Below, piece after piece: positions 8,098-29,153 of a DNA stretch of 29,153 nt. Below the pieces are notes generated by a model. It saw nothing but the letters and a program-made list of their open reading frames with translations, made no database searches and had not been told where the DNA came from. How positions within the stretch are numbered: the stretch's first letter is position 1; each line of letters opens with the position of its first letter. Both the position numbers and the translations under genes were made by a program. Source of the stretch: a virus (Duplodnaviria > Caudoviricetes); the IMG/VR virus record IMGVR_UViG_3300011334_000219, positions 1 through 29,153 of that record. One strand, given 5' to 3'.

Positions 8098-8109
8098 TAG
8101 GACCGGCCC

Positions 8110-9515: not shown

Positions 9516-9516
9516 A

Positions 9517-11028: not shown

Positions 11029-11042
11029 AAAGGTTTATTGAT

Positions 11043-14791: not shown

Positions 14792-14793
14792 CA

Positions 14794-15365: not shown

Positions 15366-15366
15366 C

Positions 15367-15543
15367 ATGAAAATCGTATCTTGGGTAGTAACCCGTTTGA
15401 AAGAGCCTAGCACATACGCAGGCTTCGCTGGCATCGCATTGGCGTTCGGCTTGTCCGACGCGCAGTGGGCTACAATCTCCACGGCAGTTGCCGGTCTGGC
15501 TGGTGTAGCCGCTATGCTTCTGTCTGAAGCACCCGCCGAATAA
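15367..15543 (+). CDS. Putative holin (58 aa, two hydrophobic segments)
   Basis: MKIVSWVVTRLKEPSTYAG...; ATG at 15367 just after the endolysin stop; ORF-track start at 15268 judged too far upstream. Confidence 0.7.
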   Translation: MKIVSWVVTRLKEPSTYAGFAGIALAFGLSDAQWATISTAVAGLAGVAAMLLSEAPAE

Positions 15544-15755
15544 TGAAGTTCCTGACGGCCCTGCTGGGTATCATTAACAAGCTTTTAGGGCTTTGGAATG
15601 AGAACCGTTGGAAGCAGCGGGGCCGTCAAGAAACCATTAAGGAAATGAACGATGCCATTAATCGTCAAATCGAGCTGGGCGAGGCTGCTGTCATCGTCCC
15701 TGATCCTGAGCGCGACGAACGGTTGCGCGACCGTTTCGACCGTTCCCGTAAATAG
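15543..15755 (+). CDS. Putative inner-membrane spanin (Rz-like)
   Basis: Hydrophobic N-terminus, charged helical tail; overlapped by a lipoprotein ORF. Confidence 0.6.
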   Translation: MKFLTALLGIINKLLGLWNENRWKQRGRQETIKEMNDAINRQIELGEAAVIVPDPERDERLRDRFDRSRK

Positions 15756-15885
15756 CTATTGTGCTATTGCGAAGCCTATAAGTTACGACGCGACGAAAGA
15801 CACATCAGAAACTATCAGAGAAATAGAGGCGCATAACAGCGCCTTTATTTGTATCTGTGAGGCTGATTGCCCGAAAGGCAAATAA
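15652..15885 (+). CDS. Putative outer-membrane spanin lipoprotein (Rz1-like)
   Basis: +1-frame overlap with the Rz-like gene; signal-like LLSSSLILSATNG-C; further Cys residues. Confidence 0.65.
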   Translation: MPLIVKSSWARLLSSSLILSATNGCATVSTVPVNSYCAIAKPISYDATKDTSETIREIEAHNSAFICICEADCPKGK

Positions 15886-17082
15886 ATGCCGTCATCCATA
15901 TTTATAGACCCAGAGTTGTACAAATATTGTACACCCCGTCAGCGTGAGATGCTTGAGGCCATTCAAGAACACGGCGGCGCTAGGGCTGCGTCGATTGCAA
16001 TGGGCATCAACATAGGCGGCGCAAGCGACGCTTACCTTGCGGTCAAGAAGAAAGCGGCGTTGCAGGGCTACGCGCCCGAAAACGACTTCACTCGGCCAGT
16101 GCCGCAGGGCTATGTCACCAAGGGCGTGTCAACCTACTACAACTCCGAAGGCAAGCCATCAGGCCAGTGGGTCAAAGCGTCGCTGACGCATGAGGCGATG
16201 GTAGAAGCCATGCGTGAGACAGTCGCTGGCTTCAAGGATCAGATACAGCCGGCGGACATTATCGTCGCGCCAGAGGCTACTGAAGAGCATCTGTGCAACC
16301 TGTACACTTTCACCGACTACCACCTTGGTATGCTGGCATGGCATCAGGAAGGCGGCGCTGATTGGAACGTATCTAAAGCAGAGCAAACTATCCTTGCGGC
16401 GCTGGCGCAGATGATCAACCAAAGCCCGACAGCGCACACGGCAGTTGTCAACATCCAAGGCGACTTCCTGCACACCGACGGCAAGACGCCTGTGACGCCA
16501 GCGTCCAAGCACGTTCTGGATGCGGACAGCCGCTTCCCAAAGATACGCCGCGCAGCCATCCGCATCATCCGCTCACTGGTGACGCTGTCGTTGCAGCGAC
16601 ATCAAGAAGTGTATCTGATTATAGCCGAAGGCAATCACGACGAAGAAAGCAGCGGCTGGTTAGCCGATTTGTTTTCTGTGCATTACGAAGAAGAACCGCG
16701 CGTCACTGTCAACGACAGCGTCCTGCCGTTCTATGTATTTGAGTGGGGCAACACCATGCTGGGCGTGCACCACGGTCACAAGGTTAAGAACGAAAACCTA
16801 CCGCTGCTGTTCGCCGCGCAGTTCCCGCAACAGTGGGGTCGCACTACCCGCCGTGAGATACACTGCGGCCACCGCCATCACCGCGACGAAAAAGAATATA
16901 ATGGTGTGACAGTTGTGCAACACCCGACGCTGGCTGCGCGGGATGCCTACGCTGCACGCGGCGGCTGGATCGCAGACCGCGCGGCATGGGCCATCACGTA
17001 CCATAAAGAGTACGGCGCTGTGGGCCGCGTCATGGTCACAACTGAAATGCTAGGTGCGCCTAGCCATCAGGCGACCGATTAG
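15886..17082 (+). CDS. Calcineurin-like metallophosphoesterase with an N-terminal HTH-like region
   Basis: TDYHLG, GDFLH, GNHD, HHGH and GHRHH motifs in canonical order; TPRQREMLEAI...ARAASIAMGI HTH-like start. Confidence 0.85.
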   Translation: MPSSIFIDPELYKYCTPRQREMLEAIQEHGGARAASIAMGINIGGASDAYLAVKKKAALQGYAPENDFTRPVPQGYVTKGVSTYYNSEGKPSGQWVKASLTHEAMVEAMRETVAGFKDQIQPADIIVAPEATEEHLCNLYTFTDYHLGMLAWHQEGGADWNVSKAEQTILAALAQMINQSPTAHTAVVNIQGDFLHTDGKTPVTPASKHVLDADSRFPKIRRAAIRIIRSLVTLSLQRHQEVYLIIAEGNHDEESSGWLADLFSVHYEEEPRVTVNDSVLPFYVFEWGNTMLGVHHGHKVKNENLPLLFAAQFPQQWGRTTRREIHCGHRHHRDEKEYNGVTVVQHPTLAARDAYAARGGWIADRAAWAITYHKEYGAVGRVMVTTEMLGAPSHQATD

Positions 17083-17181
17083 TATCACCGCCTCACCTAA
17101 GTCTTCTGGCACATGGCCTGCCCGCAGCATGGCAAGCACCTTTTCTAGTGCCTCTGCTGCGGCTGCCGCATGGTCTGTCAT
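17050..17181 (-). CDS. Small hypothetical protein (43 aa), not in the ORF track
   Basis: MTDHAAAAAEALEKVLAMLRAGHVPEDLGEAVILIGRLMARRT*; ATGA coupling with the 17178-17369 gene. Confidence 0.55.
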   Translation of the reverse strand: MTDHAAAAAEALEKVLAMLRAGHVPEDLGEAVILIGRLMARRT

Positions 17182-17369
17182 TTCTTTAACCCTACCATAA
17201 TCTCGACGCGCTCCCGCGCTGTCCGCATCGCAGAGTAACGCTGGTGCAACCGCCGGGCTATGGCTGGGCGCTTGTGCGTCTTCAGTTCAGCGTCCAGCGC
17301 CTGCTTTAGCTGGTCTTCCGTAAGGTCAGACAGCACGGCAATCATCGACCGCCAGTTTAGTTTACTCAT
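17178..17369 (-). CDS. Hypothetical protein (63 aa)
   Basis: RLHQRYSAMRTARER motif; overlaps the helicase stop. Confidence 0.7.
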   Translation of the reverse strand: MSKLNWRSMIAVLSDLTEDQLKQALDAELKTHKRPAIARRLHQRYSAMRTARERVEIMVGLKK

Positions 17370-18675
17370 TTTTTAGTTCCTCTAGTGCTAGGTCGGATAC
17401 TGTACGCTTGTCGTGCAGCGCCGCCCATATGCGTTCATCAATACTCTTTTCGGTTAGCATCACGTAGACCCAGACATCTTTTGTCTGGCCGCTGCGGTGC
17501 AAACGCCCGACAGTCTGTTCGTACAACTCCAGCGACCACGGCAGCGACAGGAACACCATGTGGCATCCGCCATGCTGTAGGTTCAAGCCATGCCCTGCCG
17601 ACTTAGGGTGGGCCAGCAACAGCTCGACCTCGCCTGCGTTCCAGCGTTCGATGACGTTGTCATCATCCATCGTCTGCGCGTGCGGGAAGCGGCGCTTCAG
17701 TTCCGCTAACTCTTCCTGATATGTATACGCTACTAGCGTATTGGCCCGCTGGTTTTCCGACAGCAGTTCTTCCAGCCGGTCAAACTTGTGGCTGCTGAAC
17801 CAGATGGACGGCGTGCCTGCGTCGCGGTTGTACACAAAGCCAGACGCCATCTGTTGCAGCTTGGTCGTTACCGCCGCTGCGTTCTGGGCTACGATCTGGT
17901 CGCTGCCGAAACGCACGACATAGTCGCGCTTCATCTTTTCGTATGGCGCGCGGTCATCCAGCGCGACGCGTACCTCAGTGACATGGCATGGCGGCAGCTT
18001 GTCCTTGTACTCGCCCGGCTCAAGCACGAACGTCGCAGGGCGTATGCGCTTCATGACTTGCTCCAGCGCGCCGGCTGCGGGTACCCATTGACCAAACTCG
18101 CGGTTGGTGCAGATGAAATACTGTTGCATGAACGCACCCTTGGCGCGGCCCAGCAACGACTGGTCTATTATCTTGCACTGGCCGAAGACATCCTCCAGCC
18201 CGTTCGACGTAAACGATCCTGTCAACCCCCAACGTATTCTCATAGAAGACATGATTTTCTCCAAAGCCTTATAGCGTTTGCCTGACGGGTTCTTCAGTCG
18301 CGTCAGTTCGTCAAACACCACTCCATCGAAACTTGATAAGTCCTTTAGCTTGTCCAAGTTATCATAATTGCTAACCACAACGCTGGCGCCGCTGTCCATT
18401 GCGGCTGCGCGCTGCGCCGGCGTGCCAACAGCCACCGCGGGCGTAAGGCTAGACCACTTCGGCGCTTCCACCGGCCACACGTCAGTGCAGACACGCTTCG
18501 GCGCCACCACCAGCCAGCGGTTGACAATGCCATCGCGCAGCATCTCATCCATCGCCGTCAAAGTAATGGCGGTCTTGCCAGCGCCTACAGGCGCAAGGAT
18601 CATGGCGCGGTCGCGTTCGTACAGGAACGTCGCCGCCTGCTGCTGGTACGGTCTTAGCTGAAACGTTTGAGCCAT
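17362..18675 (-). CDS. SNF2-family DEAD/H-like helicase
   Basis: LRPYQ, GAGKT, VVFDE, GLTGS, GHGLNLQ and GRLHRSGQ motifs; start placed at MAQTF (18675), ORF extends to 18705. Confidence 0.92.
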   Translation of the reverse strand: MAQTFQLRPYQQQAATFLYERDRAMILAPVGAGKTAITLTAMDEMLRDGIVNRWLVVAPKRVCTDVWPVEAPKWSSLTPAVAVGTPAQRAAAMDSGASVVVSNYDNLDKLKDLSSFDGVVFDELTRLKNPSGKRYKALEKIMSSMRIRWGLTGSFTSNGLEDVFGQCKIIDQSLLGRAKGAFMQQYFICTNREFGQWVPAAGALEQVMKRIRPATFVLEPGEYKDKLPPCHVTEVRVALDDRAPYEKMKRDYVVRFGSDQIVAQNAAAVTTKLQQMASGFVYNRDAGTPSIWFSSHKFDRLEELLSENQRANTLVAYTYQEELAELKRRFPHAQTMDDDNVIERWNAGEVELLLAHPKSAGHGLNLQHGGCHMVFLSLPWSLELYEQTVGRLHRSGQTKDVWVYVMLTEKSIDERIWAALHDKRTVSDLALEELKNE

Positions 18676-18929
18676 GCGTCTATGTCCTCTATCGACCACA
18701 GACACGCGTAGTGCTGCTTGGTGTGTGCCATCTCATCTGAAAAGATACGCTGCAACGCAGACAGGCGTCCGTTGGGCTGCTTGATTTCTATAAACCAAGC
18801 CTCACCGTTAGGCATACAAGCTATGCGGTCGGCAACGCCAACTTGCGTGATGCTGCGGAACTTATAGGCAAAACCGCCCAGCGCCCGCACACGTTTACAA
18901 AAGTACCGCTCTATTTCTTTCTCAGTCAT
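18654..18929 (-). CDS. VRR-NUC domain nuclease
   Basis: EKEIE, GVADRI, FIEIK, GRLSALQ motifs. Confidence 0.88.
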   Translation of the reverse strand: MTEKEIERYFCKRVRALGGFAYKFRSITQVGVADRIACMPNGEAWFIEIKQPNGRLSALQRIFSDEMAHTKQHYACLWSIEDIDAWLKRFS

Positions 18930-18935
18930 GCAAAA

Positions 18936-18964
18936 AGGCTACTACAAAATTTTTTCAATTTCAA
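18936..18964 (-). promoter_or_regulatory. Putative leftward promoter (leaderless VRR-NUC/helicase mRNA)
   Basis: Minus strand TTGAAA-17 nt-TAGCCT; ATG lies 6 nt downstream with no SD. Confidence 0.45.
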
Positions 18965-18967
18965 GCC

Positions 18968-18996
18968 TTGCATTAAGTTTTGTTGCAGTCTATGGT
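18968..18996 (+). promoter_or_regulatory. Putative rightward promoter of the replication operon
   Basis: TTGCAT-17 nt-TATGGT. Confidence 0.5.
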
Positions 18997-19026
18997 CACA
19001 TCTCAAACAGTAAAGTGAGGTACATT

Positions 19027-20148
19027 ATGCAACACAGTAAGATTGTCGGCGGTTCGACCGCCAAGCGCGTCATAGCCTGCCCCGGCAGCGTGGCGCTGGT
19101 GGACACCGTACCGCCAAAGCCCAGCAGCAGCTACGCCGACGAAGGCACGCTCCTGCACGACAGCATTGCAACTATACTAGAACGCGACGTTGACCCGTAC
19201 CGCTTGGTTGGTCTGCGTTACGAAGACGTAGAGTTGACGGAAGCGTTAGTCGAGGACAAGCTGATACCGGCGCTGCGTGCGCTGGACGAGATAGACCCGC
19301 AGGGGGAGATGGAATATGCTGTTGAGAGCAGGGTTGGTTTTGGTGATTATTTGCCTAACGTTTTTGGTTCTACCGATCTTCTTGGTCGCCTTGGTGATCG
19401 AGCGATTGTTCTGGATTGGAAATTTGGCGATGGTGTGGCTGTTGAAGCCACCGAAAACGCCCAATTACTCTTCTACGCTGCGGCGTCTAGGCGAACGGCG
19501 GAAACGGCGTGGGCTTTCGACGGAGCCAAAGAAGTAGAACTAATCATTGTCCAGCCGCCTTACGTTAAGCGGTGGGTGACAACGCTGGACCGCGTCGATG
19601 CGTTTGAGAAAGAACTTGCCGCTGCCGTCAAGATTGCTGCGCGGCCAGACGCGCCGTTGGCATCAGGCGACCATTGCAAGTGGTGCGCGGCCAAGCCTGT
19701 CTGCCCTGTTATGACCGGCGCTGTAGACCGCGCGCTGAAGGTCAAGGTCGATGCGCTGCCAATGGATCAGATAGCACACTATCTGGAACAGGCGCCGCTG
19801 GTCGAGGCGTTCATTAAAGATTTGCAGCAGTTGGCGCATGGGCTTCTGGAAAGCGGGGCAAAAGTCCCCGGCTGGAAGCTGGTCAACAAACGCGCAACAC
19901 GGCAGTGGACAAACGAAGATAAAGCTGTAGCTTTCATGTCCGCTGCGGGTGTAGAAGCATGGGCTGATCCAAAGCCGCTGTCGCCTGCACAAGCGGAAAA
20001 GGCTTTGAAGAAAGCCAAAATAGAATTGCCAGCGGACTTAATTGTCGCTGTCTCCAGTGGCTCTACCCTTGCGCCGGAAAGTGATTCCCGGCCAGCGGTC
20101 TTGCAGATCGGACAGATGCTTACCAAAGCTATGTCTAAAATACAGTAA
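19027..20148 (+). CDS. Cas4-like PD-(D/E)XK nuclease (DUF2800-like)
   Basis: CPGS, EGTLLH, FGSTD, DWKFG, QLLFYA and HCKWC...CP motifs; start at MQHSK after GTGAGG. Confidence 0.85.
   Translation: MQHSKIVGGSTAKRVIACPGSVALVDTVPPKPSSSYADEGTLLHDSIATILERDVDPYRLVGLRYEDVELTEALVEDKLIPALRALDEIDPQGEMEYAVESRVGFGDYLPNVFGSTDLLGRLGDRAIVLDWKFGDGVAVEATENAQLLFYAAASRRTAETAWAFDGAKEVELIIVQPPYVKRWVTTLDRVDAFEKELAAAVKIAARPDAPLASGDHCKWCAAKPVCPVMTGAVDRALKVKVDALPMDQIAHYLEQAPLVEAFIKDLQQLAHGLLESGAKVPGWKLVNKRATRQWTNEDKAVAFMSAAGVEAWADPKPLSPAQAEKALKKAKIELPADLIVAVSSGSTLAPESDSRPAVLQIGQMLTKAMSKIQ
19316..19537 (+). CDS. Candidate overprinted membrane protein (73 aa) in the +1 frame of the nuclease gene
   Basis: GGAG 7 nt before the ATG; 43-residue hydrophobic stretch then a basic tail; host-frame third positions become T-rich over this stretch. 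Confidence 0.55.
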   Translation: MLLRAGLVLVIICLTFLVLPIFLVALVIERLFWIGNLAMVWLLKPPKTPNYSSTLRRLGERRKRRGLSTEPKK

Positions 20149-20166
20149 CAGAAAAGGAATACAGTA

Positions 20167-20829
20167 ATGTCCAATATCACTACTTTTGGCGGCGCTAACT
20201 TGCCGTCAGTACAATCGCTCTCTGGCGCTTTGCGCTCCATCCAAGCTGAAAGTGCCCCCGGTGGTACAGTCATCCTCAAGATGGACAAGACAGGCCATTG
20301 GGTTTTCGGTGCAGACCAGACCGAAGTCGAGGAAGGCAGCCGCTGGGCAGCTAACCCGTTCTCGTTCGTCCACGGCTACATTGCGTGGGGCAACGGCGAA
20401 GTGCTGGCTGAAAAGCTGGTGCCGGTGTCAGAGCCGCTTCCAGAGCTAGACCCAGCGCCAGCAGGCGCACAGCGCGGTTGGGAAATGCAAGTGGGCATGA
20501 TGCTCGTTTGCACCAACGGCGAAGACAAGGATATGCAGGCACGCTTCACCGCTACGTCAGTCGGTGGCAAACGCGCCGTGCAGGCGTTGGCTGTCGCCAT
20601 CGCTGATCAGGTCGAGAAAGACCAGACTAAGCCTGTGCCATTGCTTGAACTAAAGACCGAGCATTACCAGCACAAGACTTACGGGCGTATCTTTACGCCT
20701 ATCTTTGAGATTACCGATTGGGTGTCTATGGACACCGATTCGGTAGCTGAACCAGAGGAAGCGGTATCGGAAACCGCCGCTGATCCTGAAGCCGCTGAAG
20801 GTGCGCGTCGCCGGCGTCGCGTAGCCTAA
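20167..20829 (+). CDS. Putative single-stranded DNA-binding/annealing protein (220 aa)
   Basis: Between nuclease and polymerase as in APSE-like modules; YQHKTYGRIFTP..W motif and an acidic C-terminal region. Confidence 0.6.
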   Translation: MSNITTFGGANLPSVQSLSGALRSIQAESAPGGTVILKMDKTGHWVFGADQTEVEEGSRWAANPFSFVHGYIAWGNGEVLAEKLVPVSEPLPELDPAPAGAQRGWEMQVGMMLVCTNGEDKDMQARFTATSVGGKRAVQALAVAIADQVEKDQTKPVPLLELKTEHYQHKTYGRIFTPIFEITDWVSMDTDSVAEPEEAVSETAADPEAAEGARRRRRVA

Positions 20830-20833
20830 GTGG

Positions 20834-20872
20834 TGCGAAAGCCGGGGTGATCCACCACCCCGGCGAGTAGCA
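20834..20872 (+). promoter_or_regulatory. Hairpin with a loop E/bulged-G internal loop upstream of the polymerase RBS
   Basis: TGC-GAAA-GCCGGGGTG-ATCCAC-CACCCCGGC-GAGTA-GCA; no U-tract. Confidence 0.55.
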
Positions 20873-20888
20873 GAAGAGTGAGAACTTC

Positions 20889-22844
20889 ATGACTAAATTA
20901 TGGGTAGACTTTGAAACGCGCAGTCGGTGCGACCTTCGCAGCCGCGGCGTGTACAATTACGCGCAGGACGCCAGCACCGACGTGCTGTGTATGTCATACG
21001 CATTTGATGACGAAGACGTGCGGACGTGGCTACCCGGTGAGCCTTTCCCGCAAGCCGTGCGTGATCACAAGGGGCTGGTGTACGCGCACAACGCAGCGTT
21101 TGAGCGTCTGATATTCTGGTATGTCCTTCAGGTCGAGTTTAAGCTGGAGCAGTTTTATTGCACCGCAGCACAAGCCCGCGCTAACTGCGCGCCGGGCAGC
21201 CTTGAGGATGTGGGCCGCTTCGCTGGCGCGACTATGAAAAAAGACCACCGCGGCGGACAACTGATCCGCGCGCTATCCATCCCGCAAGGCGACGGCGAGT
21301 TCCGCGCAGACGCGAAGCTGATGCAAGAGATGGTTGACTATTGCGAACAGGACGTGCGGGCCATGCGTGCCATAGCGCAGGCGCAGCGCCCGCTGTCGGC
21401 TGAAGAGTTGGCTGACTATCATGTCAACGAGCGTATCAACGACCGCGGCGTGCTGCTCGACAGGCCATTGGCGCTGGCAGCGGTTTCGTACTCAAACGCA
21501 GAAACAATTGAAATACAGAACTTGGTGTGCGAGATAACCAACCGCGAAATTGTAAGCGTTCGCAGCGTGCGTATGAAGGACTGGGTTTGGGACCGCGTTG
21601 GGCCTGAATCGCGGAAACTTATGACGCTTATTAAAAAAGAACGTGAGCATAGATGTCTAGATAAAAACGCGCGCGCAAACTTGCTGGCGTTAGCGGAGGA
21701 GAACCCTGATGAAGTGCCGGCGGAAGTGGCGGATGTTATCCAGTGCGCGGACGATCTGTGGGCATCGTCCGTTGCGAAGTTCCAACGTGCAGCGGCGCTT
21801 GCTGATGAGGAGGATTTTCGCGTTAGAGGAGCGTTCGTATTTGCAGGAGGTAGCGCTACTGGCCGCGCTGCATCGTATGGGCTTCAGGTCCATAACTTCC
21901 CAAGAAAGTGCGCCGCAGACCCTGCATTAGTACGGCAGGCTATGGTGCGCGGGCATCAAATTGTCCCTGACCATGGTCGCCGTGTAACTGACGTGCTGAA
22001 AGGTATGCTGCGCCCTGCGCTGATGGCCGGCAAAGGCAAGCGCCTTGTTGTTGCCGATTGGGCTGCGATTGAAGCGCGTGTGACGCCGTGGGCGTCCGAC
22101 AGTATCTTTGGTGAACGCAAGCTGGACATCTTTGCCAAGGGCGAAGACGTGTACAAGCACAACGCTATGGCGACCTTTCATGTCGGTTACGGCGATGTCA
22201 CTACAGACCAGCGCCAGATCGGCAAGGTGCAAGAGTTGGCCTGTGGCTTTGCCGGCGGCGTTGGAGCGTTCGCCAGCATGGGCCGCATTTACGGCTTGAT
22301 GATGTCAGAGAGCGACGCAAAGCGCATGGTTGACGCATGGCGCAGGGCTAACCAGTGGGCCGTGCCGTACTGGTCGGGTCTGGAAGAGACTTATATGCGC
22401 GCCATGCGGAACAAGAACCGTGAGTTTACAATAGGCCGCATCACATATTTATTTGATGGACTGCATCTTTGGTATGCCCTTCCGTCTGGACGTGTGTTAT
22501 GCTATCCTTTCGCCCGTTTCGACGAGGAAGGCAACCTGACCTACGCGAAGGCTTCTTGGAAGCCCGCCGCGGACGCGAAGGAGTGGCCGAGGGCGCGGCT
22601 ATGGCGCGGTTTGGCGTGTGAGAACATCACGCAAGCTATCGCTAATGACTTGCTGCGCTACGCCTTGCGGCAGTTGGACGATACGGTACTTCATATTCAC
22701 GATGAAATCGTCTTGGAAGTGCCAGAAGCAGATGCAGAAGCCGCAGCAGCGCGGCTGGTGCAGGTTATGTGTACGCCGCCACCTTGGGCATCGGGGCTAC
22801 CCCTGAACGCAGAAGTGGCAATTATGGAACGTTATGGCAAATAA
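20889..22844 (+). CDS. Family A DNA polymerase (APSE/SPO2-like) with 3'-5' exonuclease domain
   Basis: DFETRS, AHNAAFE, YCEQDV exonuclease motifs; ATGR, DWAAIEAR, RQIGKVQELACGF and HIHDEIV polymerase motifs. Confidence 0.95.
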   Translation: MTKLWVDFETRSRCDLRSRGVYNYAQDASTDVLCMSYAFDDEDVRTWLPGEPFPQAVRDHKGLVYAHNAAFERLIFWYVLQVEFKLEQFYCTAAQARANCAPGSLEDVGRFAGATMKKDHRGGQLIRALSIPQGDGEFRADAKLMQEMVDYCEQDVRAMRAIAQAQRPLSAEELADYHVNERINDRGVLLDRPLALAAVSYSNAETIEIQNLVCEITNREIVSVRSVRMKDWVWDRVGPESRKLMTLIKKEREHRCLDKNARANLLALAEENPDEVPAEVADVIQCADDLWASSVAKFQRAAALADEEDFRVRGAFVFAGGSATGRAASYGLQVHNFPRKCAADPALVRQAMVRGHQIVPDHGRRVTDVLKGMLRPALMAGKGKRLVVADWAAIEARVTPWASDSIFGERKLDIFAKGEDVYKHNAMATFHVGYGDVTTDQRQIGKVQELACGFAGGVGAFASMGRIYGLMMSESDAKRMVDAWRRANQWAVPYWSGLEETYMRAMRNKNREFTIGRITYLFDGLHLWYALPSGRVLCYPFARFDEEGNLTYAKASWKPAADAKEWPRARLWRGLACENITQAIANDLLRYALRQLDDTVLHIHDEIVLEVPEADAEAAAARLVQVMCTPPPWASGLPLNAEVAIMERYGK

Positions 22845-22854
22845 GGAGCAAGCG

Positions 22855-25203
22855 ATGAGTGAGGATCGCCAGAAGTTTATAGATTATATAGTTGGATTAG
22901 CCGCTGATACAGTGGGTGAAACGGCTTTGTTAGTGCGTCAGAAGCCAATACGCGGCGATGACGGCAACCTAATCTACCATGCAGATGGTGCGCCGAAGGC
23001 GACCTTTCCTGCGTTCCTGCCCGAAAAGGCACGGATTAAAGATGGCGAGGCTTGGTATATCAACACAGGTTCGTTCGTCGTTGACCGCTTTGTAGACGGC
23101 AAGCCGGCTGCTAAGTCCAGCAACGTCGAGTTCGTCCTGTTTATGATGCTGGATGACATTGGCACAAAGTCTAAGACGCCGCCGCTTGACCCGACATGGA
23201 TACTGGAAACTAGCGAAGGTTCGTTCCAGTGGGGCTATGCGTTTAACGAGCAACCAAACAAAGGCGATTTCTGCGCTGCCGTCAAAGCTATTGCAGATGC
23301 GGGCTATACCGACCCCGGCGCGACTAACGCTGTCCGCAACTGCCGTATCCCTGACAGCATTAACCTGAAGCGCGGGCGCGGCAACTTTCCCGCACGGCTG
23401 GTCGAGTTCCACCCAGAGCGTGAATACACTTTAGAGCAGATTTGCACTGCTTTGGGTGTTACGCCAGAAGAAGGCGACACAGCGGACTATAAAGCCGTAA
23501 AGATACGCGACACTGGACAGGACAACGTCCTGACATGGTTAAGCGAACAGAACCTAGTTCTTAGCGCACCTAACAACGACGGCTGGTGTGGCATTGTCTG
23601 CCCTAACCATCACGAACACAGCGACGGCATGATCGAGGCGCGCTACAAGCCGCTGGATCGTTCGTTCTGCTGCTACCACGGCCATTGCCAAGACTTAGAC
23701 AGCCGCACGTTTCTTGATTGGGTCGCCGCTAACGGTGGGCCGCAGGCAACGCCCGGCTTGCGTGATGAGCTAATCGCTGAACGCATGGCGTCGATGATGG
23801 ACAAGATTTCACCAACGGAAGCCTTCCCTGATGAAGCCGCAGCGCGTGTGCGTGAGGTCGAAAAGAAAGAAGCAGGACGGCTGGAACAAAGCGAGTGGTT
23901 TGATCGGTTCGCTTACATACAGTCTGATGACTGCTATTTCGACATGGTCACACGTCAAGAGATAGCGCGTAACGTCTTCAACGCTTTGTTCCGTCACATT
24001 GACTGTCGTTCCATCCACAAGAAAACGCAGCGTGTGCAAGCGTCCATCTATTTTGATGAGCGTCGGCAGGATCGCGGCGCGCCAGCATTGGCAGCGGTGA
24101 CGTTTGCCGCCGGCGATGACGTTCTGGTGACGCGCGACGGGTTGGTTTACGGCAACAGGTGGACAAACGCCCGCCCTGATGTAGCTGATAGCGACAAGAT
24201 TGCGGATCATGATGTCGAGCCTTGGCTAGCGCATTGCCGCAATCTGATCGCGGATGATAAAGAGTTAGACCATATCCTTAACGCTATGGCGTTCAAGATA
24301 CAAAACCCAACGGTCAAGATCAATCACGCCATCCTTATTGGCGGCGATGAAGGCGCGGGCAAGGATACTATATTCCAGCCGTTCCTGTGGGCGCTAGGCG
24401 GCAAGAACTGGCGCAACAGGTCAGTCATTGAGGCTGGCGGATTGGAAAGCCAGTGGGGCTATGCGCTTGAGGCTGAAGTGGTCATCCTGAATGAGTTAAA
24501 GGAACCAGAGGCAAGAGAGCGCCGCGCTATGGCTAACAAGCTAAAGCCGCTGATCGCTGCGCCACCTGAAACGCTGTCGGTCAACCGTAAGGGTATGCAC
24601 CCCTATGATTTGGTCAATCGCTTAATGGTGATCGCTTACACGAACGATTCGCTGCCTATCACGCTGCCAACGCAGGATCGCCGTTGGTTCTGCGTCTGGA
24701 CACACGCGCCGCGCATGACAACGCCAGCAGCCGACGCGCTGTGGGGCTGGTATAAGACAGGCGGCTATGAAAAGTGCGCCGCTTGGCTGCACCAGCGCGA
24801 CGTGTCGGCGTTCAACCCTGCTGCTGCACCGCCAGTGACCGAATGGAAGCTGAACATGGTCGAGCATGGCATGAGCGCAGCGGAAAGCTATCTGGTAGAG
24901 TTGATGCGTAATCGGTCGGGTATGTTTGCGGATGGTGTCATCGGTGGGCCGTTCCATCGTCTTGGCGATATACTCGCGCCGTTCATGCCAGCGGGATTAA
25001 AGGTTCCGCAAGCTGCGCTGCTTCATGCGTTAAAGGAGGCTGGATGGGTTGACATGGGGCGGATCGGTTCGGTTGAACACCCCACTAAAAAGCATATCTT
25101 TGTCGCGCCGGATGCGCTTCAGAAATATAGCAAGTCCGACTTGCGCCGCATGGCGGAAAACTTACCTACAAGCAGCAATATGCCAACGATAGGCAGGAAT
25201 TGA
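22855..25203 (+). CDS. Primase-helicase (RepB-like primase domain, Zn-binding region, SF3/D5-like ATPase)
   Basis: MLDD and ETSEGSFQW; CPNHHEH...CYHGHC; GDEGAGKD Walker A, ILNE, DRRW; start at MSEDRQ after AAGGAG. Confidence 0.88.
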   Translation: MSEDRQKFIDYIVGLAADTVGETALLVRQKPIRGDDGNLIYHADGAPKATFPAFLPEKARIKDGEAWYINTGSFVVDRFVDGKPAAKSSNVEFVLFMMLDDIGTKSKTPPLDPTWILETSEGSFQWGYAFNEQPNKGDFCAAVKAIADAGYTDPGATNAVRNCRIPDSINLKRGRGNFPARLVEFHPEREYTLEQICTALGVTPEEGDTADYKAVKIRDTGQDNVLTWLSEQNLVLSAPNNDGWCGIVCPNHHEHSDGMIEARYKPLDRSFCCYHGHCQDLDSRTFLDWVAANGGPQATPGLRDELIAERMASMMDKISPTEAFPDEAAARVREVEKKEAGRLEQSEWFDRFAYIQSDDCYFDMVTRQEIARNVFNALFRHIDCRSIHKKTQRVQASIYFDERRQDRGAPALAAVTFAAGDDVLVTRDGLVYGNRWTNARPDVADSDKIADHDVEPWLAHCRNLIADDKELDHILNAMAFKIQNPTVKINHAILIGGDEGAGKDTIFQPFLWALGGKNWRNRSVIEAGGLESQWGYALEAEVVILNELKEPEARERRAMANKLKPLIAAPPETLSVNRKGMHPYDLVNRLMVIAYTNDSLPITLPTQDRRWFCVWTHAPRMTTPAADALWGWYKTGGYEKCAAWLHQRDVSAFNPAAAPPVTEWKLNMVEHGMSAAESYLVELMRNRSGMFADGVIGGPFHRLGDILAPFMPAGLKVPQAALLHALKEAGWVDMGRIGSVEHPTKKHIFVAPDALQKYSKSDLRRMAENLPTSSNMPTIGRN

Positions 25204-25229
25204 CATCAGTGGGTTTCCAGTGATACAAT
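25200..25229 (+). promoter_or_regulatory. Near-consensus sigma70 promoter driving a short non-coding transcript
   Basis: TTGACA(25200-25205)-18 nt-TACAAT(25224-25229) with an extended TGn; no + strand gene follows. Confidence 0.7.
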
Positions 25230-25233
25230 GTTT

Positions 25234-25300
25234 GGGTTGGTAATGCTCTACTGACCCTTTTGGAAAACCCTCGGCGTCCTCACTCCGCCGAGGGTTTTTT
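25234..25300 (+). ncRNA. Candidate two-hairpin small regulatory RNA (~67 nt)
   Basis: Hairpin 1 GGGTTGGTA-ATGCTC-TACTGACCC has two G-U pairs valid only on +; hairpin 2 loop TCCTCACTC; ends in a T6 tract. Confidence 0.6.
25264..25300. terminator. Bidirectional intrinsic terminator between convergent operons
   Basis: AAAACCCTCGGCG-9 nt-CGCCGAGGGTTTTTT, perfect 13-bp stem with A and T tracts. Confidence 0.85.
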
Positions 25301-25302
25301 GT

Positions 25303-25482
25303 TTATTCGTCCCATGCTTCTTCGGCGTCTAGGATCAACTCGCATGGCGGGAAGCGCAGATTGCTCACTTCAATATCGGTTATTATGCCTCTAAAGGCGA
25401 GATGCTCCATCAGGCGATAAGCCAGCGTAGCTTCGGCGCGTTGGTCGTAATTTTCAAAAGCGTCTATTTCTTCTTCAGTCAT
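25303..25482 (-). CDS. Acidic hypothetical protein (59 aa), not in the ORF track
   Basis: MTEEEIDAFENYDQRAEATLAYRLMEHLAFRGIITDIEVSNLRFPPCELILDAEEAWDE*; AAGGA RBS; ends at the terminator. Confidence 0.65.
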   Translation of the reverse strand: MTEEEIDAFENYDQRAEATLAYRLMEHLAFRGIITDIEVSNLRFPPCELILDAEEAWDE

Positions 25483-25873
25483 TTGTCAGTGTCCTTTCAC
25501 ACGTTTTGCAGACTTCGCCTTCCGTCCGCCTAAACAAGCGGCAGCGTGGGCATTTGTCGCCGGAGGCAGGGAACCACATCGCAGCAACGCGGGGCAGTTC
25601 CAGATCGTCCCGCTCGGCTTCATGCGCTGCAGGTGGAAACTTGTCGCCCATCACGATGCACACGCCTTCAATGGCGCTAGTCTTGCACATTGCGGCCATG
25701 TCGGAATTGCGAGCGAACAGCCCTGCCGTTGTCGGATCGTCGGTGTATAGCATGATGCTGCTATCCTCTTGCTCCGTCACACGCCCCATGCGGCGTTGTT
25801 CTTCACCGGCCAACAGCGCGGCGCGTCTGGCTAAGCGCATGACTGCGCCCCATTCGCGGATATTTTCGGTCAT
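25475..25873 (-). CDS. Stand-alone protein resembling the IleRS C-terminal region with an FPG/IleRS-type Zn finger (132 aa)
   Basis: ASGDKCPRC-x10-CKTC plus upstream W, E.QRR.GR and DMAAMCKTS patterns; GAGGA RBS. Confidence 0.65.
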   Translation of the reverse strand: MTENIREWGAVMRLARRAALLAGEEQRRMGRVTEQEDSSIMLYTDDPTTAGLFARNSDMAAMCKTSAIEGVCIVMGDKFPPAAHEAERDDLELPRVAAMWFPASGDKCPRCRLFRRTEGEVCKTCERTLTND

Positions 25874-26061
25874 TTCTTTTCCTCAATCCAAAAGTGGTGC
25901 ATCATGTAATGCGTGGCGGTTTCATCTGTCACCCTGTCGCCTATCCCGCCGCTTGCGGTGGTTAGGTGGTTGGCGAAAGTGTTGGGGTCTTTAGCTGACC
26001 GCACCGCAGGGGTGCGTGTCAGTTTCATATATCCGTTCTGGTCTGTCATGGTCACATCCAT
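25870..26061 (-). CDS. Hypothetical protein (true start may be 26055 or 26049)
   Basis: ORF track; ATGA coupling to the downstream gene. Confidence 0.55.
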   Translation of the reverse strand: MDVTMTDQNGYMKLTRTPAVRSAKDPNTFANHLTTASGGIGDRVTDETATHYMMHHFWIEEKK

Positions 26062-26237
26062 CTAGTTATAAAGGTTATGCCGCCCGCAGTGCGGCATTTA
26101 AACGCCTTACCGTGGCGTATGCCGTATTGCGACACGTTGCGGCTGGTGCGCTTGGCATCGCCTTTGTTGGCGGCTGGCATAGTGCCAACATCGCCGACTT
26201 CTAGCGTCCCCATAGGGTAAAACATCGGTCGGCTCAC
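26052..26237 (-). CDS. Small basic protein, possibly nucleic-acid binding (61 aa)
   Basis: YPMGTLEVGD...GKAFKCR...ITR pattern seen in small phage proteins; GTGA coupling; GGAG RBS. Confidence 0.6.
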   Translation of the reverse strand: MSRPMFYPMGTLEVGDVGTMPAANKGDAKRTSRNVSQYGIRHGKAFKCRTAGGITFITRWM

Positions 26238-26437
26238 TCGCCCTGCTCCCGTGCTTCAAGCATGGCATCGGCAAATTCGTATGCCCAATTAGCAATGTCA
26301 ATTAGGGCACCGTCATCGTCAACGGGGCCGGCTATGTGGCCGTTTAGTATCTGTCCCGCGAAGTAATCGCGCAGGGTTATGTCACCGTCAATCTGTTTGC
26401 TTATGCGTGCGAGATGTTCTTGTGCTGAATTGCTCAT
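26234..26437 (-). CDS. Small phage protein with the TLRDYFA motif (67 aa)
   Basis: ITLRDYFAGQ...AYEFADAMLEAR; AAGGAG RBS. Confidence 0.8.
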   Translation of the reverse strand: MSNSAQEHLARISKQIDGDITLRDYFAGQILNGHIAGPVDDDGALIDIANWAYEFADAMLEAREQGE

Positions 26438-26565
26438 TTGTTCTGCTCCTTTTCCTTGTGTCGTTCTGCGAATGTTTTACCATCTAGGCCGCGCAGCGGC
26501 CATGCGTTTTCGGACGATACGCGATATTTGCGCCCTAATGGGGCGGCTTGGGGTGTCTTAATCAT
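26434..26565 (-). CDS. Small hypothetical protein (43 aa), not in the ORF track
   Basis: MIKTPQAAPLGRKYRVSSENAWPLRGLDGKTFAERHKEKEQNK*; GGAG upstream; fills the gap exactly with ATGA coupling. Confidence 0.6.
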   Translation of the reverse strand: MIKTPQAAPLGRKYRVSSENAWPLRGLDGKTFAERHKEKEQNK

Positions 26566-26566
26566 A

Positions 26567-26905
26567 TTATAACTCCACTGTTGTCTTAGGTTTGGCGCGC
26601 TTGTCGTTTAGTCGTTCAAGCCAGTATTTTTGGTCGGGCCCAAATGACCGTGCTGCGTGATATTTGAACAGCGCAACAGCCAACGGATCGTAACCCTTCC
26701 ACTTATGCGTCACGATCAGCGGCGAGGGCATCATGGGCGCATGGTCAGTGCTATAGAAGCGCCGCCGGTCATTTGCCGTGACTTCGATAATGTCCAGCGT
26801 GCTAAGGTTTAGGCCATGCTCGTTGTTAACATAGGCGGCAATCGCGCTTCTGTCGCTGATGTAGCTAGCTAGATGCTGGATTTGCTTGCGTAGGGCGTAT
26901 TCCAT
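26567..26905 (-). CDS. Hypothetical protein (112 aa)
   Basis: Start at MEYALRK by TAATG coupling; ORF-track extension to 27040 overlaps another gene. Confidence 0.65.
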   Translation of the reverse strand: MEYALRKQIQHLASYISDRSAIAAYVNNEHGLNLSTLDIIEVTANDRRRFYSTDHAPMMPSPLIVTHKWKGYDPLAVALFKYHAARSFGPDQKYWLERLNDKRAKPKTTVEL

Positions 26906-27105
26906 TAGCTTTCGCCTTTCTTGTGATAGCGTCCCGTGCGCTTGTCGCGTATGAGCGCGTTTTGCTTCCAATACAGCAACTCTTTTGTGTCGCGCACCCA
27001 TGCGTTGCGAAACCAACTGTATTGCCTGTGCGTGTCCCATAGGATAGCCAGCGTTGCGGCTTGTGCGGCTAACAAAACCGCGATTGTGAAATATTCGGGT
27101 GCCAT
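26905..27105 (-). CDS. Small protein with an N-terminal hydrophobic helix and basic tail (66 aa)
   Basis: FTIAVLLAAQAATLAILW; RDKRTGRY tail. Confidence 0.65.
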   Translation of the reverse strand: MAPEYFTIAVLLAAQAATLAILWDTHRQYSWFRNAWVRDTKELLYWKQNALIRDKRTGRYHKKGES

Positions 27106-27107
27106 AG

Positions 27108-27167
27108 TTAATCGTCCAATATTAGAGTTAATAGGAAAAGGGCTGCTGCACCGACAACGGCTATCAT
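27108..27167 (-). CDS. Candidate hydrophobic micropeptide (19 aa)
   Basis: MIAVVGAAALFLLTLILDD*; ATGA coupling; fills the gap between neighbours. Confidence 0.45.
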   Translation of the reverse strand: MIAVVGAAALFLLTLILDD

Positions 27168-27418
27168 TGGGCGTCCAACTGCGCTTGCATAACTTCTATT
27201 TCGTCCAACGATCTAAGTGCTTGATCCATACAACTGGTGAGCCGTAAATTTAGGTCTTCTATTTCGTTCTTGGCTTCGTCTAGCTGCGCTTCAACGGTCA
27301 ACAGTTCGCTAAGGCGTTCTGCTAACACAACAGCCAGTTCGTGATTGCGATCTAATGCAGTGCGAACAAGTTCTGCGTCTGACAGCATACTAAGATAGGT
27401 TCGTCCGTGGTTTGTCAT
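27164..27418 (-). CDS. Coiled-coil hypothetical protein (84 aa)
   Basis: Start at MTNHGRTYL after GGAGG; LSDAELVR...LAVVLAERL then heptad pattern. Confidence 0.7.
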   Translation of the reverse strand: MTNHGRTYLSMLSDAELVRTALDRNHELAVVLAERLSELLTVEAQLDEAKNEIEDLNLRLTSCMDQALRSLDEIEVMQAQLDAQ

Positions 27419-27419
27419 A

Positions 27420-27656
27420 TCATTCGCCCTCCAAGCCAAGCAGGCCAATGACTTCATATAGTTCGGCACATTCCATGCCGCTTGCCACGCATACGTTCAC
27501 AAGGCCGCGCAGGGACGGTTCAAGCATATCCAGCGCATGAAGATTTTCTACGCTATCGTCGTATAGCTTGCCGTCATTGTTGACGGCGTTGCCCATCAGC
27601 ACATCGTCGCGGTTTTCGAGTAGCTCGCGCACTGTGCGGAATATGTCGTTAGTCAT
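27420..27656 (-). CDS. Hypothetical protein (78 aa)
   Basis: ORF track; AAGGA RBS; tight packing. Confidence 0.65.
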   Translation of the reverse strand: MTNDIFRTVRELLENRDDVLMGNAVNNDGKLYDDSVENLHALDMLEPSLRGLVNVCVASGMECAELYEVIGLLGLEGE

Positions 27657-27659
27657 TTC

Positions 27660-27749
27660 TCAGTTTCCTTTTAATGTGATGATAATTGATGTGATCGATA
27701 GCAACAGCACGGCGGCAAAGCCGGCTGTTGCGATTATGTGCGCGATCAT
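27660..27749 (-). CDS. Candidate single-TM micropeptide (29 aa)
   Basis: MIAHIIATAGFAAVLLLSITSIIITLKGN*; ATGA coupling to the upstream gene. Confidence 0.55.
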   Translation of the reverse strand: MIAHIIATAGFAAVLLLSITSIIITLKGN

Positions 27750-28012
27750 GCGTTGGTGCTTTCCACAGGCGCGTAATGGTCGCGCAGCGCGTCCCAATCG
27801 ACACTGTTAAGGTCAAGCATGTCGTAAATGAAACCGGCGGCATAATCACGCCCTAACAGTTCCTCGACATGTTCCTCGACCATATCGCGCAGATATTCGG
27901 GAGAAAAGTCAAAGCCATCTTCTGCTAATTCTGCCCAATGGTCACCAAACCAAAGGCTTACTGTCCATGTGGCGGCATTGCGCCAGCCGTTGCAAGTTGT
28001 TTCGGTAGTCAT
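27746..28012 (-). CDS. Acidic early phage protein with the NGW.N..TW.V.LW motif (88 aa)
   Basis: CNGWRNAATWTVSLW...VDWDALRDH; AGGAG RBS. Confidence 0.8.
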   Translation of the reverse strand: MTTETTCNGWRNAATWTVSLWFGDHWAELAEDGFDFSPEYLRDMVEEHVEELLGRDYAAGFIYDMLDLNSVDWDALRDHYAPVESTNA

Positions 28013-28037
28013 AGTTTCTCACTCCTATTGATTATGG

Positions 28038-28259
28038 TTATGCGTCATGCTTTGCTTTGTTGATTATGCGAGCTAGTTCTTGGCGGCCTGTCATAAACAG
28101 AAAGCTAATGCCCTCATCGACCGTAGCAAAATCTAACAGGCGGTTGCTTTCGTCGGGGCCATTGACGATTAGGCGGCCTTGCGTGTTTGTCCAAATATGC
28201 CAGCCGTTAGCGTCAATGCAGATTTTAGAGCCGCTAGAATTGATTTTATAATAGTTCAT
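28038..28259 (-). CDS. Hypothetical early protein (73 aa)
   Basis: ORF track; preceded by the repeated RBS element. Confidence 0.75.
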   Translation of the reverse strand: MNYYKINSSGSKICIDANGWHIWTNTQGRLIVNGPDESNRLLDFATVDEGISFLFMTGRQELARIINKAKHDA

Positions 28260-28288
28260 GGTTTCTCACTCCTATTGATTGGTTGGTG

Positions 28289-28471
28289 TTATGCGTCTAA
28301 ATCAATCAGACGCTGTAATGATTTGGTCAGTTCGCTGGCCCGTGCCATGCTGTCGCTGTCACCGTCGATAAGAAATGCCGTTATCTTTTCGGAAAGCTCA
28401 ATCACAGTGTCGCGATAAGTTAAACCCTCGCCGCGCAAGAAATCGAAAATAGTGTCAGTATCATGTGTCAT
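28289..28471 (-). CDS. Hypothetical early protein (60 aa)
   Basis: ORF track; preceded by the repeated RBS element. Confidence 0.75.
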   Translation of the reverse strand: MTHDTDTIFDFLRGEGLTYRDTVIELSEKITAFLIDGDSDSMARASELTKSLQRLIDLDA

Positions 28472-28492
28472 GGTGTCTCACTCCTATGTTGT

Positions 28493-28512
28493 GGGCGGCG
28501 CTAAGGCCGCCC
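28493..28512. other. GC-rich intergenic hairpin without a U-tract (stabiliser or processing site)
   Basis: GGGCGGC-GCTAAG-GCCGCCC. Confidence 0.45.
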
Positions 28513-28520
28513 GATTAATG

Positions 28521-28715
28521 TTAAGCCGTCAATTCTTCCCATGAGGGCAATTCCCAATGGTCAGACAGTTTCAATTTGCCGTCTGGACCAATAACAAGCA
28601 GCGGGCTTTCGTCGCCGCGCGTTGGATGTTCGTAAAACTTATGTCCGGCGACTGCGCCCATGAGATAAGGCTTAGTGGCTAAGAACGTTTGGGCTTTGTC
28701 AGATAGTGTAGGCAT
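28521..28715 (-). CDS. First early-operon protein (64 aa)
   Basis: Start at MPTLSDK after GGAGTG; FYEHPTRGDESPL motif. Confidence 0.7.
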   Translation of the reverse strand: MPTLSDKAQTFLATKPYLMGAVAGHKFYEHPTRGDESPLLVIGPDGKLKLSDHWELPSWEELTA

Positions 28716-28741
28716 AGCAGGCACTCCGTTGTTGATACCCT

Positions 28742-28770
28742 CTTATCTACCCTCAAACATAGCCTGTCAA
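28742..28770 (-). promoter_or_regulatory. Putative early promoter
   Basis: Perfect TTGACA (28770-28765) on the minus strand; -10 uncertain (TAGATAAG region). Confidence 0.45.
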
Positions 28771-28820
28771 CAACAAATTGTGTTGCAGCGAAAATAAATC
28801 GTAAAAAGTGAAAATAAACC

Positions 28821-28829
28821 TGTGGATAA
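28821..28829 (-). promoter_or_regulatory. Consensus DnaA box
   Basis: TGTGGATAA on + equals TTATCCACA on -; beside an A-rich tract. Confidence 0.4.
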
Positions 28830-28860
28830 CTTATTTTGCCGCTTGGCGAAAATAGTCATG

Positions 28861-29134
28861 AGTTAGGCTATTGTGGCGGGTGAAATAGCCTAACTTTTTT
28901 GGCTTGATTGCGCGGGTTTGAAGGGGAGTTAGGCTATCTAGGCTATTTGTTTTATAGTCATTGATGAAATGAAAAATGTTATATAGAATATAACCATATA
29001 GGTTTCTCACAATTCGCGGTGACTTCAAACCCGATGACAATATAGCCTAGAACGCCTAACTTGCCCTCTAACTTTACGTTAACGTAACTCGGTTCATCGG
29101 CAACTTGTTATGTCATAGCCTAGATCGCCTAACT
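28861..29134. repeat. Iteron-like direct and inverted (TA)GCCTA repeats around an AT-rich core
   Basis: 12-bp inverted repeat 28861-28872/28884-28895; 20-mer at 28927-28946 inverted at 29042-29061 and 29115-29134. Confidence 0.75.
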
Positions 29135-29153
29135 AATAACCGTTCGCAATAAG

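Follow-up and report, generated by a model that had tools for sequence, protein, structure and literature searches.

What is the function of a compact transcription unit that lies where the replication and early operons of a phage converge? The question arises from IMG/VR record IMGVR_UViG_3300011334_000219, of which we analyzed positions 1 to 29,153 (hereafter the window). The window covers the greater part of the genome of an uncultured phage and contains genes for a P22-like capsid, a lysis region and a helicase, together with a replication operon on the + strand and early genes on the - strand. The replication operon runs rightward in the order nuclease, putative SSB, polymerase, primase, the small early genes form a leftward block, and the element in question sits at the convergence point of the two. 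A preliminary description, made from the window alone, had read this element as the source of a small RNA that acts in trans on early and replication genes. Comparison with relatives indicates that the element is a predicted, conserved and apparently undescribed phage small RNA (sRNA), and we propose, with a probability of roughly two in three (0.68), that this RNA is a trans-acting translational repressor, of the kissing-loop type, of the phage's own replication and early genes.

A promoter, two hairpins and a terminator behind the primase gene

The promoter, both hairpins and the U-tract that the preliminary description had placed downstream of the primase gene are present in the sequence, as follows.

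25200..25229, + strand: promoter, with -35 box TTGACA at 25200-25205, an 18-nt spacer, TG at 25221-25222 and -10 box TACAAT at 25224-25229
25234..25257, + strand: hairpin 1, loop AUGCUC (UGCUCC in most relatives), complementary to GGAGCA
25264..25300, + strand: hairpin 2, the intrinsic terminator, stem-loop 25264-25294 followed by T6; loop UCCUCACUC(C), complementary to GAGUGAG

The promoter, whose -35 box overlaps the primase stop codon, matches the consensus at 11 of 12 positions and is the best of 8 promoter-like sites in 17000-29153, although shuffled sequences also give 8.0 such sites. Because A4 precedes hairpin 2, the terminator works in both directions in this window, serving the replication operon from one side and the early operon, which converges on it, from the other. 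The predicted folding energy of the + strand is -32.2 kcal/mol (z -6.2), and that of the - strand, in which hairpin 1 is broken, is -26.4 kcal/mol.

The element is confined to one clade of related phages

We scanned IMG/VR with the primase three times and fetched the best 80 of 410, 613 and 217 matches. Leaving out loci without a primase end or without 150 nt downstream, and the frameshifted locus L028, we obtained 223 usable loci, which were dereplicated to 147 representatives. The element, recognized as a hairpin downstream of the primase gene with CUCAC in its loop, is present in 73 of 73 loci at a primase identity of at least 66% and in 0 of 74 below it. In a tree of 52 primases the element-positive members form one clade (support 100/97), in which we distinguish three subclades, near, farA and farB. 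A covariance model built from 45 RNAs gave 12 further positive loci scores of at least 37 bits, gave all negatives 25.6 bits or less and found one copy in the window. Of the loci that match the hairpin pattern, 45 of 46 viral and 37 of 41 metagenome ones have it next to the primase end, and the remaining five are cut off by a contig edge.

Most element-negative loci carry plain terminators at this position, mostly with variable loops of 3-6 nt, and a search for alternative seeds in these loops gave scattered start-site matches only. Five near-relative negatives (L126, L127, L138, L170 and L175) have a long terminator hairpin after the primase with a 10-nt loop, UGUWCCRAUC; in one of them this loop has a 6-7-nt match at the primase start, and these hairpins are possibly a sister element with a different seed.

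Within the clade the full RNA ranges from 61 to 88 nt. In the longest examples, including L026 (12381-12468) and L067 (6978-7064), hairpin 1 has been duplicated in tandem, the duplicate having a variant loop, to give an 87-88-nt RNA whose predicted fold pairs the two copies with each other. In farB (L100, L090) the genome is rearranged, with early genes on the + strand upstream of the nuclease and the helicase downstream of the element.

Evidence for a conserved + strand RNA

The promoter is conserved together with the hairpins. A strict pattern, TTG-18-TGnTA, is matched by 71 of the 73 positive loci, by 2 of the 74 negative loci and by 1.0% of random windows, and in distant clade members the promoter lies partly within the primase coding sequence. 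The window's spacer (25206-25223) contains an imperfect inverted repeat; this repeat is unlikely to be an operator because spacers vary freely in relatives, with 52 distinct sequences among them.

The stems covary while the loops stay constant. Two-sided changes occur at 14 of 19 stem pairs (7 of 7 in hairpin 1, 7 of 12 in hairpin 2), a count reached in 0 of 500 shuffles and compared with 3-9 in slid controls, although this statistic is not a probability, as the structure was derived from the same, related sequences. The CUCACU of loop 2, in contrast, is invariant in 45 of 45 aligned RNAs. A stem kept while its loop drifted had been named in advance as a pattern that would count against a functional loop, and the opposite is seen. 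The strand assignment made earlier from G-U pairs also holds across the clade: among 63 distinct RNAs, stem positions that are not Watson-Crick pairs are G-U rather than A-C by 75:5 (hairpin 1) and 16:1. Finally, the downstream genes of farB run rightward, so that no convergent transcript needs terminating there, yet the U-tract remains on the + strand, which points to a + strand product. The element thus has the own promoter, intrinsic terminator and covarying structure expected of a trans-encoded RNA of the bacterial type. Two runs guessed to be RNA (word shares 0.09 and 0.06) held scattered contigs of relatives and provide no evidence either way.

Loop 2 is complementary to the starts of replication and early genes

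The genes and sites relevant to loop 2 are as follows.

19014..19020, + strand: loop-2 target AGUGAGG, 5' of the nuclease AUG (19027)
19027..20148, + strand: DUF2800 / PD-(D/E)XK nuclease
20873..20888, + strand: loop-2 target hairpin GAAG-[AGUGAGAA]-CUUC, directly 5' of the polymerase AUG (20889)
20889..22844, + strand: family A DNA polymerase
22852..22869, + strand: loop-2 target hairpin GCGAU-[GAGUGAGG]-AUCGC, spanning the primase AUG (22855)
22855..25203, + strand: primase, with a RepB-primase N-terminal domain and DUF5906; the element that follows is also the 3' end of the operon
26233..26249, - strand: tandem targets, GGAGCA (26249-26244) and GAGUGAG (26239-26233), of a conserved 57-aa gene
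28018..28025, - strand: loop-2 target GGAGUGAG of early gene 28012-27746
28265..28272, - strand: loop-2 target GGAGUGAG of early gene 28259-28038
28477..28484, - strand: loop-2 target GGAGUGAG of early gene 28471-28289

All 6 copies of GAGTGAG outside the element in the window lie at gene starts, and the related AGTGAGG lies at 19014. Of the 43 called genes of the window, 7 have a match to loop 2 of at least 7 nt at their start; no such match is found among the + strand genes of 57-17082, 21 in all. Most of the targets listed in the preliminary description therefore stand, namely primase, polymerase, nuclease, the three early genes with GGAGUGAG and the gene placed at 26237; the match at 28722 does not, being 6 nt only (GGAGTG) and equalled by two other called genes, and thus not above background. 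Two placements change in detail. The primase, whose site had been given as 22857, most likely starts at 22855, so that the site spans the AUG, and the gene at 26237 probably starts at 26225. A further gene start on the - strand, at 25873, carries UGAGGA, a 6-nt match to loop 2 whose predicted energy of -12.3 kcal/mol is the fifth best in the window and which had not been listed before.

The association holds across the clade. With starts anchored by homology, AGUGAG is present at the primase start in 61 of 61 positive and 3 of 69 negative loci, the three negative cases lying inside upstream terminator-like hairpins. For the polymerase the counts are 43/54 positive and 0/45 negative, and for the nuclease 26/42 and 0/35. 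The polymerase misses arise because inserted genes precede the polymerase, and a site is still present behind the putative SSB gene in every positive locus (49/49) and in no negative one (0/36). The inserted genes, methylase, HNH or QueD-like, stand directly behind a structured leader described below and have taken over the AGUGAG site (L007, L020, L027, L080, L087, L090, L091, L100, L122 and L131). No site is found at the genes for the putative SSB (0/48), the helicase (0/45) and the VRR-type nuclease (0/45). Early loop-2 sites are concentrated in the first four to five early genes, and early targets are spread over 29 and 66 different protein families. At the primase the site covers codons 1-4, and codons 2-5 show no variation in any of 31 genes, as compared with invariance at 72 of 543 other codons for conserved residues.

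A caveat raised at the outset was that a motif resembling a Shine-Dalgarno (SD) variant might match gene starts by chance. That concern is largely answered, as the motif is missing both from the element-less relatives and from the late genes of the element-bearing phages. When copies were counted at starts and elsewhere, as had been suggested, 157 of 195 GAGTGAG copies in positive loci fell at starts called by a simple in-house gene caller, ranking this 7-mer third of 14,268 (mean 2.9%), as compared with 2 of 25 in negatives. At late-gene starts AGUGAG is found in 1/320, 0/68 and 4/41 cases in the three subclades (5/429 overall). The claim that the motif is missing from structural and lysis gene starts is accordingly sound for the window but not for the whole clade: the four late cases of one subclade, at four loci, all concern the same small lysis-region gene, with complementarity of up to 11 nt.

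Loop 1 provides a candidate second seed

Loop 1 (UGCUCC) is complementary to GGAGCA; neither this loop nor its target had been noticed in the preliminary description. In addition to the tandem site listed above, two targets are found in the window.

22845..22850, + strand: loop-1 target GGAGCA, in the primase SD region
26444..26449, - strand: loop-1 target GGAGCA, of early gene 26437-26234

The loop 1 of the window ends in U, so that one G-U pair is needed with GGAGCA. At primase starts GGAGCA is present in 41 of 61 positive and 0 of 69 negative loci. At early starts it is found in 70/683 cases in near and 44/177 in farA, as compared with 5/599 in negatives, and at late starts in 0/320 (near) and 1/68 (farA). 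Loop-1 sites are spread more widely over the early genes than loop-2 sites. In farB, loop 1 has changed to ACCCCAAACC, for which we saw no target, and GGAGCA is found at 0 of 53 replication-gene starts.

Primase and polymerase targets lie in predicted hairpin loops

The loop-2 sites at the primase and polymerase are themselves presented in small hairpin loops, which, as far as prediction goes, is the layout of kissing-loop antisense control. The polymerase site is enclosed by a stem of at least 4 bp in 33 of 36 distinct sequences, as compared with 24% of shuffles, and the stems differ in a covarying manner (GAAG/CUUC, GGAUG/CAUCC, GGUUG/CAACC, GCAGGU/ACCUGU and UGAAG/CUUCA). The primase site is so enclosed in 34 of 39 sequences (17% of shuffles), nearly all with one stem. 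The nuclease site has a 3-bp stem only, and loop presentation was seen there in 1 of 24 sequences.

Immediately upstream of the polymerase site we found a second conserved structured RNA.

20834..20872, + strand: polymerase leader between the putative SSB gene and the polymerase, GYGAAMGC-stem-GCGAGUAGC internal loop

All 49 of the positive loci compared have this hairpin, which contains an invariant GAA/AGUA internal loop, and in each of them AGUGAG comes next; among negatives 3 of 36 fit a loose pattern and none is followed by AGUGAG. Paired bases occupy 99.8% of its alignment cells, with two-sided changes at 5 of 11 pairs, and it had no match in Rfam. Its internal loop resembles a bulged-G motif, and the hairpin may bind a protein or serve as a protein operator.

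A proposed repressor of replication and early genes

In the mechanism that we propose, the conserved promoter would give rise to the 61-88-nt RNA from the start of infection through the host polymerase, and because the promoter would need that polymerase only, the RNA would accumulate with time and genome copy number. Loop 2, through its CUCACU core, would kiss the AGUGAG loops at the primase and polymerase; loop 1 would cover the GGAGCA SD, the GGAGUGAG SD regions would be covered likewise, and the primase would be bound at both sites. Pairing at the starts of the primase, polymerase, nuclease and first early genes would block ribosome loading and lower translation. Replication enzymes and host-takeover genes would be damped while late genes and the putative SSB were spared, the whole acting as a negative-feedback timer, with late superinfection exclusion of kin as a side effect.

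An RNA aimed in trans at these starts, as the preliminary description had claimed, is well supported by the invariant loops and covarying stems, the clade-wide co-occurrence, the targets in hairpin loops and the second loop-target pair. Repression is less secure, since we infer the sign of the effect from the position of the targets alone.

Covariation between loop and target, one of the checks proposed at the outset, was sparse and mixed. In its favor, L124 has the lengthened loop CCCUCACUUCCC and the primase site GGGAAGUGAGG, which are complementary over 11 nt, and in farB the original loop 1 and GGAGCA at replication genes have been lost jointly.

Several observations weigh against the repressor model. 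The L124 case is weakened in that GAAGUGAGG is also found in phages without its loop and L124 is a long branch; L122, the sole variant of the core, has a CUCACC loop while its targets are still AGUGAG; and the flanks of the 6-7-nt core mostly do not covary, 24 phages with a C in the loop having a mismatching A at the polymerase. The positives being monophyletic, their co-occurrence reflects a single gain of the element and not 73 independent gains. Predicted pairings span 6-9 bp only. Sites are limited to about a fifth of the early genes, where they lie in hairpins in 29 of 98 cases (30%), as compared with 16% of shuffles. Early starts in farB repeat GAAGGGAAAC without a matching loop, which indicates that repeated early ribosome-binding site (RBS) motifs can exist without an RNA. 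Specific avoidance of the motif inside genes is not supported either (3 GAGTGAG copies in 908 kb as compared with 6 in 744 kb).

Alternative explanations

A broader version of the model, in which one sRNA serves integrase-less phages as a master repressor, with plasmid-style kissing-loop control of primase and polymerase, a second seed that extends this control to the first early genes, a low-copy carrier state and immunity to kin, seems to us doubtful. No integrase, partition, repressor or antirepressor Pfam family was found among 147 representatives of protein families with at least 2 members, most small proteins being without a family. A GTDB search with the primase profile gave no prophage: its 6 matches were all short contigs of metagenome-assembled genomes of unrelated phyla (five at 58-63% identity and one a 73% N-terminal fragment), none of which scored with the RNA model, and a search of GTDB with the hairpin pattern gave 0 matches. 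Element-bearing contigs reach at most 39.7 kb. Together these findings fit a lytic phage and are compatible with a carrier state. The immunity suggested earlier is unsupported: the missing integrase and repressor families and the missing GTDB prophage lend it nothing. Nor is the earlier statement that the window has no protein repressor established, given conserved small proteins, a PHROG transcriptional-regulator match (E 8e-6) and an operator-like repeat at an early promoter.

The hairpins could instead act in cis, as the 3' untranslated region (UTR) of the nuclease-SSB-polymerase-primase mRNA folding back on its own starts, with the promoter product secondary. The terminator does also end the replication operon, the most constant targets (primase, polymerase leader and nuclease) lie in that operon in all three subclades, and pairing between 3' and 5' UTRs has precedent (PMC3868564). 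We nevertheless think this improbable, as 71 of 73 loci retain a promoter of the element's own, even where it reaches into the primase coding sequence, and the early targets are on the opposite strand, for which a trans RNA is needed.

Somewhat less probable still is activation, in which the RNA would pair at the same sites and open start hairpins or help ribosome loading. The primase AUG is indeed buried in a conserved 5-bp stem (-6.3 kcal/mol), the polymerase has no other clear SD, and loop 2 resembles the anti-SD at the 16S end minus one C. However, the pairing covers the SD or AUG region itself, and a stem is unlikely to be melted by 7-9 bp formed on its loop.

We give less weight again to the idea that the AGUGAG hairpins bind a phage or host protein, with the element acting as a sink through the - strand terminator hairpin (loop GAGUGAGGA) or as a stoperator-like DNA site. 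A motif in a loop is typical of protein operators, the - strand loop holds the target sequence, clade-conserved small proteins without assignment are available, and a second structured leader stands beside the polymerase site. The G-U to A-C asymmetry, the promoter and the U-tract, on the other hand, all indicate the + strand; farB has no convergent transcript; and the match between loop 1 and GGAGCA would be left unexplained.

A cuckoo-like anti-SD RNA directed mainly against host mRNAs, the phage matches arising from SD preference and cassette recombination at repeated RBSs, is a slim prospect. Both loops are anti-SD-like, a weak similarity to ar14 exists (27 bits, threshold 58.8) and farB has repeated RBS motifs without a loop match, but the primase site is part of the coding sequence and its synonymous codons do not vary, and where late genes of these phages have a GGAG SD, they do not use these variants. 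Least probable of all is that the element works as a structure in single-stranded DNA, for example a priming origin next to the primase gene: the element always adjoins the primase end and G-T pairs are tolerated in DNA, yet promoter spacing and U-tract are conserved and matches are confined to translation starts.

Neighboring genes

The closest GenBank phages to the window are uncultured or distant, and the nearest named primase (MW202483) shares 53% identity. From the -10 boxes, which lack the last T, we would guess at an alphaproteobacterial host. The gene upstream of the polymerase is called SSB from its position; its PHROGs label is nucleotidyltransferase.

The 67-aa early protein encoded at 26437-26234 (- strand) accounts for the regulator match mentioned above (phrog_30599, 'transcriptional regulator'); its top match is a PHROG of unknown function, and it is rare in relatives. 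Three small proteins on the - strand, encoded at 26225-26052, 27418-27164 and 26905-26567 (families 11, 12 and 16), are conserved solely in the element-positive clade, family 12 in all three subclades. None has a confident family assignment, atlas look-ups for two of the conserved small proteins scoring below 0.9, and these clade-specific proteins are candidate RNA- or DNA-binding partners. The 57-aa gene family with tandem targets at its start is present in 44 of 51 near, 10 of 13 farA and 0 of 74 negative loci.

At an early promoter in 28770-28738 (- strand), TTGACA precedes the direct repeats GAGGG-N7-GAGGG, which overlie the -10 region, an arrangement seen in 22 of 51 near loci; these repeats could be an operator or an activator site. 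An intergenic hairpin at 28486-28512 (- strand) lies just 5' of an early GGAGUGAG site and has a weak, below-threshold match to the Rfam family blv_FSE. In L223, an element-negative relative, a short open reading frame starting MWTKPTATEMRFGFEV directly follows the primase stop and resembles PqqA.

Comparison with known systems

No Rfam family reached threshold for the element in the search that had been suggested, which gave sub-threshold matches to NsiR1, ar14, ncS54 and leader or terminator families only. We found no description of the RNA in literature searches. More than 10,000 candidate structured RNAs have been mined from viral genomes (Fremin et al. 2023, PMC10690425); the part of that supplement searched for the loop gave no match, and the rest may list the structure. 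The phage RNAs described in two parts of a 2025 review (PMC12197685) affect either a single phage gene or genes of the host, and polymerase and primase are not mentioned in its main text.

The nearest precedents in logic are the C4 RNA of P1/P7 (RF01695) and the P4 CI RNA, which recognize short repeated sites in the phage's own transcripts, as the element is predicted to do in trans. C4 is cut from the operon that it controls and is linked to an antirepressor operon in a temperate phage. The element, by contrast, has its own promoter and terminator and is predicted to target many unlinked starts, including primase and polymerase, and no antirepressor or integrase was found. C4 (family listing excerpted from PMC2864571) was absent from window matches up to E 1 and from matches to 25100-25400 up to E 10.

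NsiR1 (RF02399), a recurring weak match at 25-36 bits (26.0 in the window, best 35.9 in L069, 7 loci, threshold 39), is similar in length and terminator hairpin but differs in its loop and forms a tandem array, whereas the element is single copy. Plasmid antisense RNAs (CopA/CopT, RNAI/RNAII, Inc) limit a replication protein through loop-loop recognition of a pre-formed target hairpin, which is the likeness here; they are cis-encoded and fully complementary to one target, whereas the element is trans-encoded, with 6-9-nt seeds and many predicted targets. The two loops of OxyS pair with fhlA mRNA at two sites, over the RBS and within the coding sequence (PMC2946933), and the primase start has the same two-site layout. 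As in that kissing-loop system, complementary seeds lie in loops of both partners at the primase (34/39) and polymerase (33/36), and weakly so at early genes. OxyS is nevertheless an Hfq-dependent host stress RNA without sequence relation to the element, whose predicted targets are the phage's own genes.

The cuckoo/ar14 RNAs of Alphaproteobacteria (RF02344) combine variable stems with fixed anti-SD-like loops, all CCUCCUCCC (PMC4615179, in which the word 'phage' is absent). The element shares variable stems and a fixed anti-SD-like loop, but its two loops differ from each other, UGCUCC and CCUCACUCC, (C)CUCACUCC, and lack CCUCCUCCC; the best ar14 score was 27.1 bits, in L008.

In cluster K mycobacteriophages, an asymmetric SD-like repeat, the start-associated sequence (SAS), stands at non-structural gene starts; its function has been left open, with an RNA or protein partner proposed, and one reverse copy is reported in four K1 genomes (PMC3203893, PMC11373665 and PMC12699233; the reverse copy in PMC3203893). 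The phages and the motif are unrelated to ours, and the partner here is visible in the genome. We observed that the reverse SAS of K1 phages lies in an intergenic hairpin loop (CCUCCUAUCC) complementary to SAS in Anaya, CrimD, SgtBeansprout, Shaobing and Nanz197.

L321 (Anaya), 31860-31890: reverse SAS hairpin
L322 (CrimD), 30825-30855: reverse SAS hairpin

The reverse-SAS region is represented by 145 phage records. Among 9 aligned phages the reverse copy is kept in 5, degenerate in 2 (Amgine, Amohnition) and lost in 2 (SirPhilip, Pixie). In the portions fetched of Pixie, ZoeJ, Kratio and Unicorn, 9-19 sense copies are present and no reverse copy. That a similar RNA logic explains start-associated repeats elsewhere, such as the K1 SAS, is suggestive only, and the element offers a testable idea for the role of such repeats in phage genomes.

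One RNA with two seeds thus appears to address a set of the phage's own replication and early genes across a large uncultured clade. If this is true, a phage can time or damp its replication by RNA alone, and every part is short enough for reporter tests without the host. The element would then work like C4/CI and the plasmid antisense RNAs without belonging to those families.

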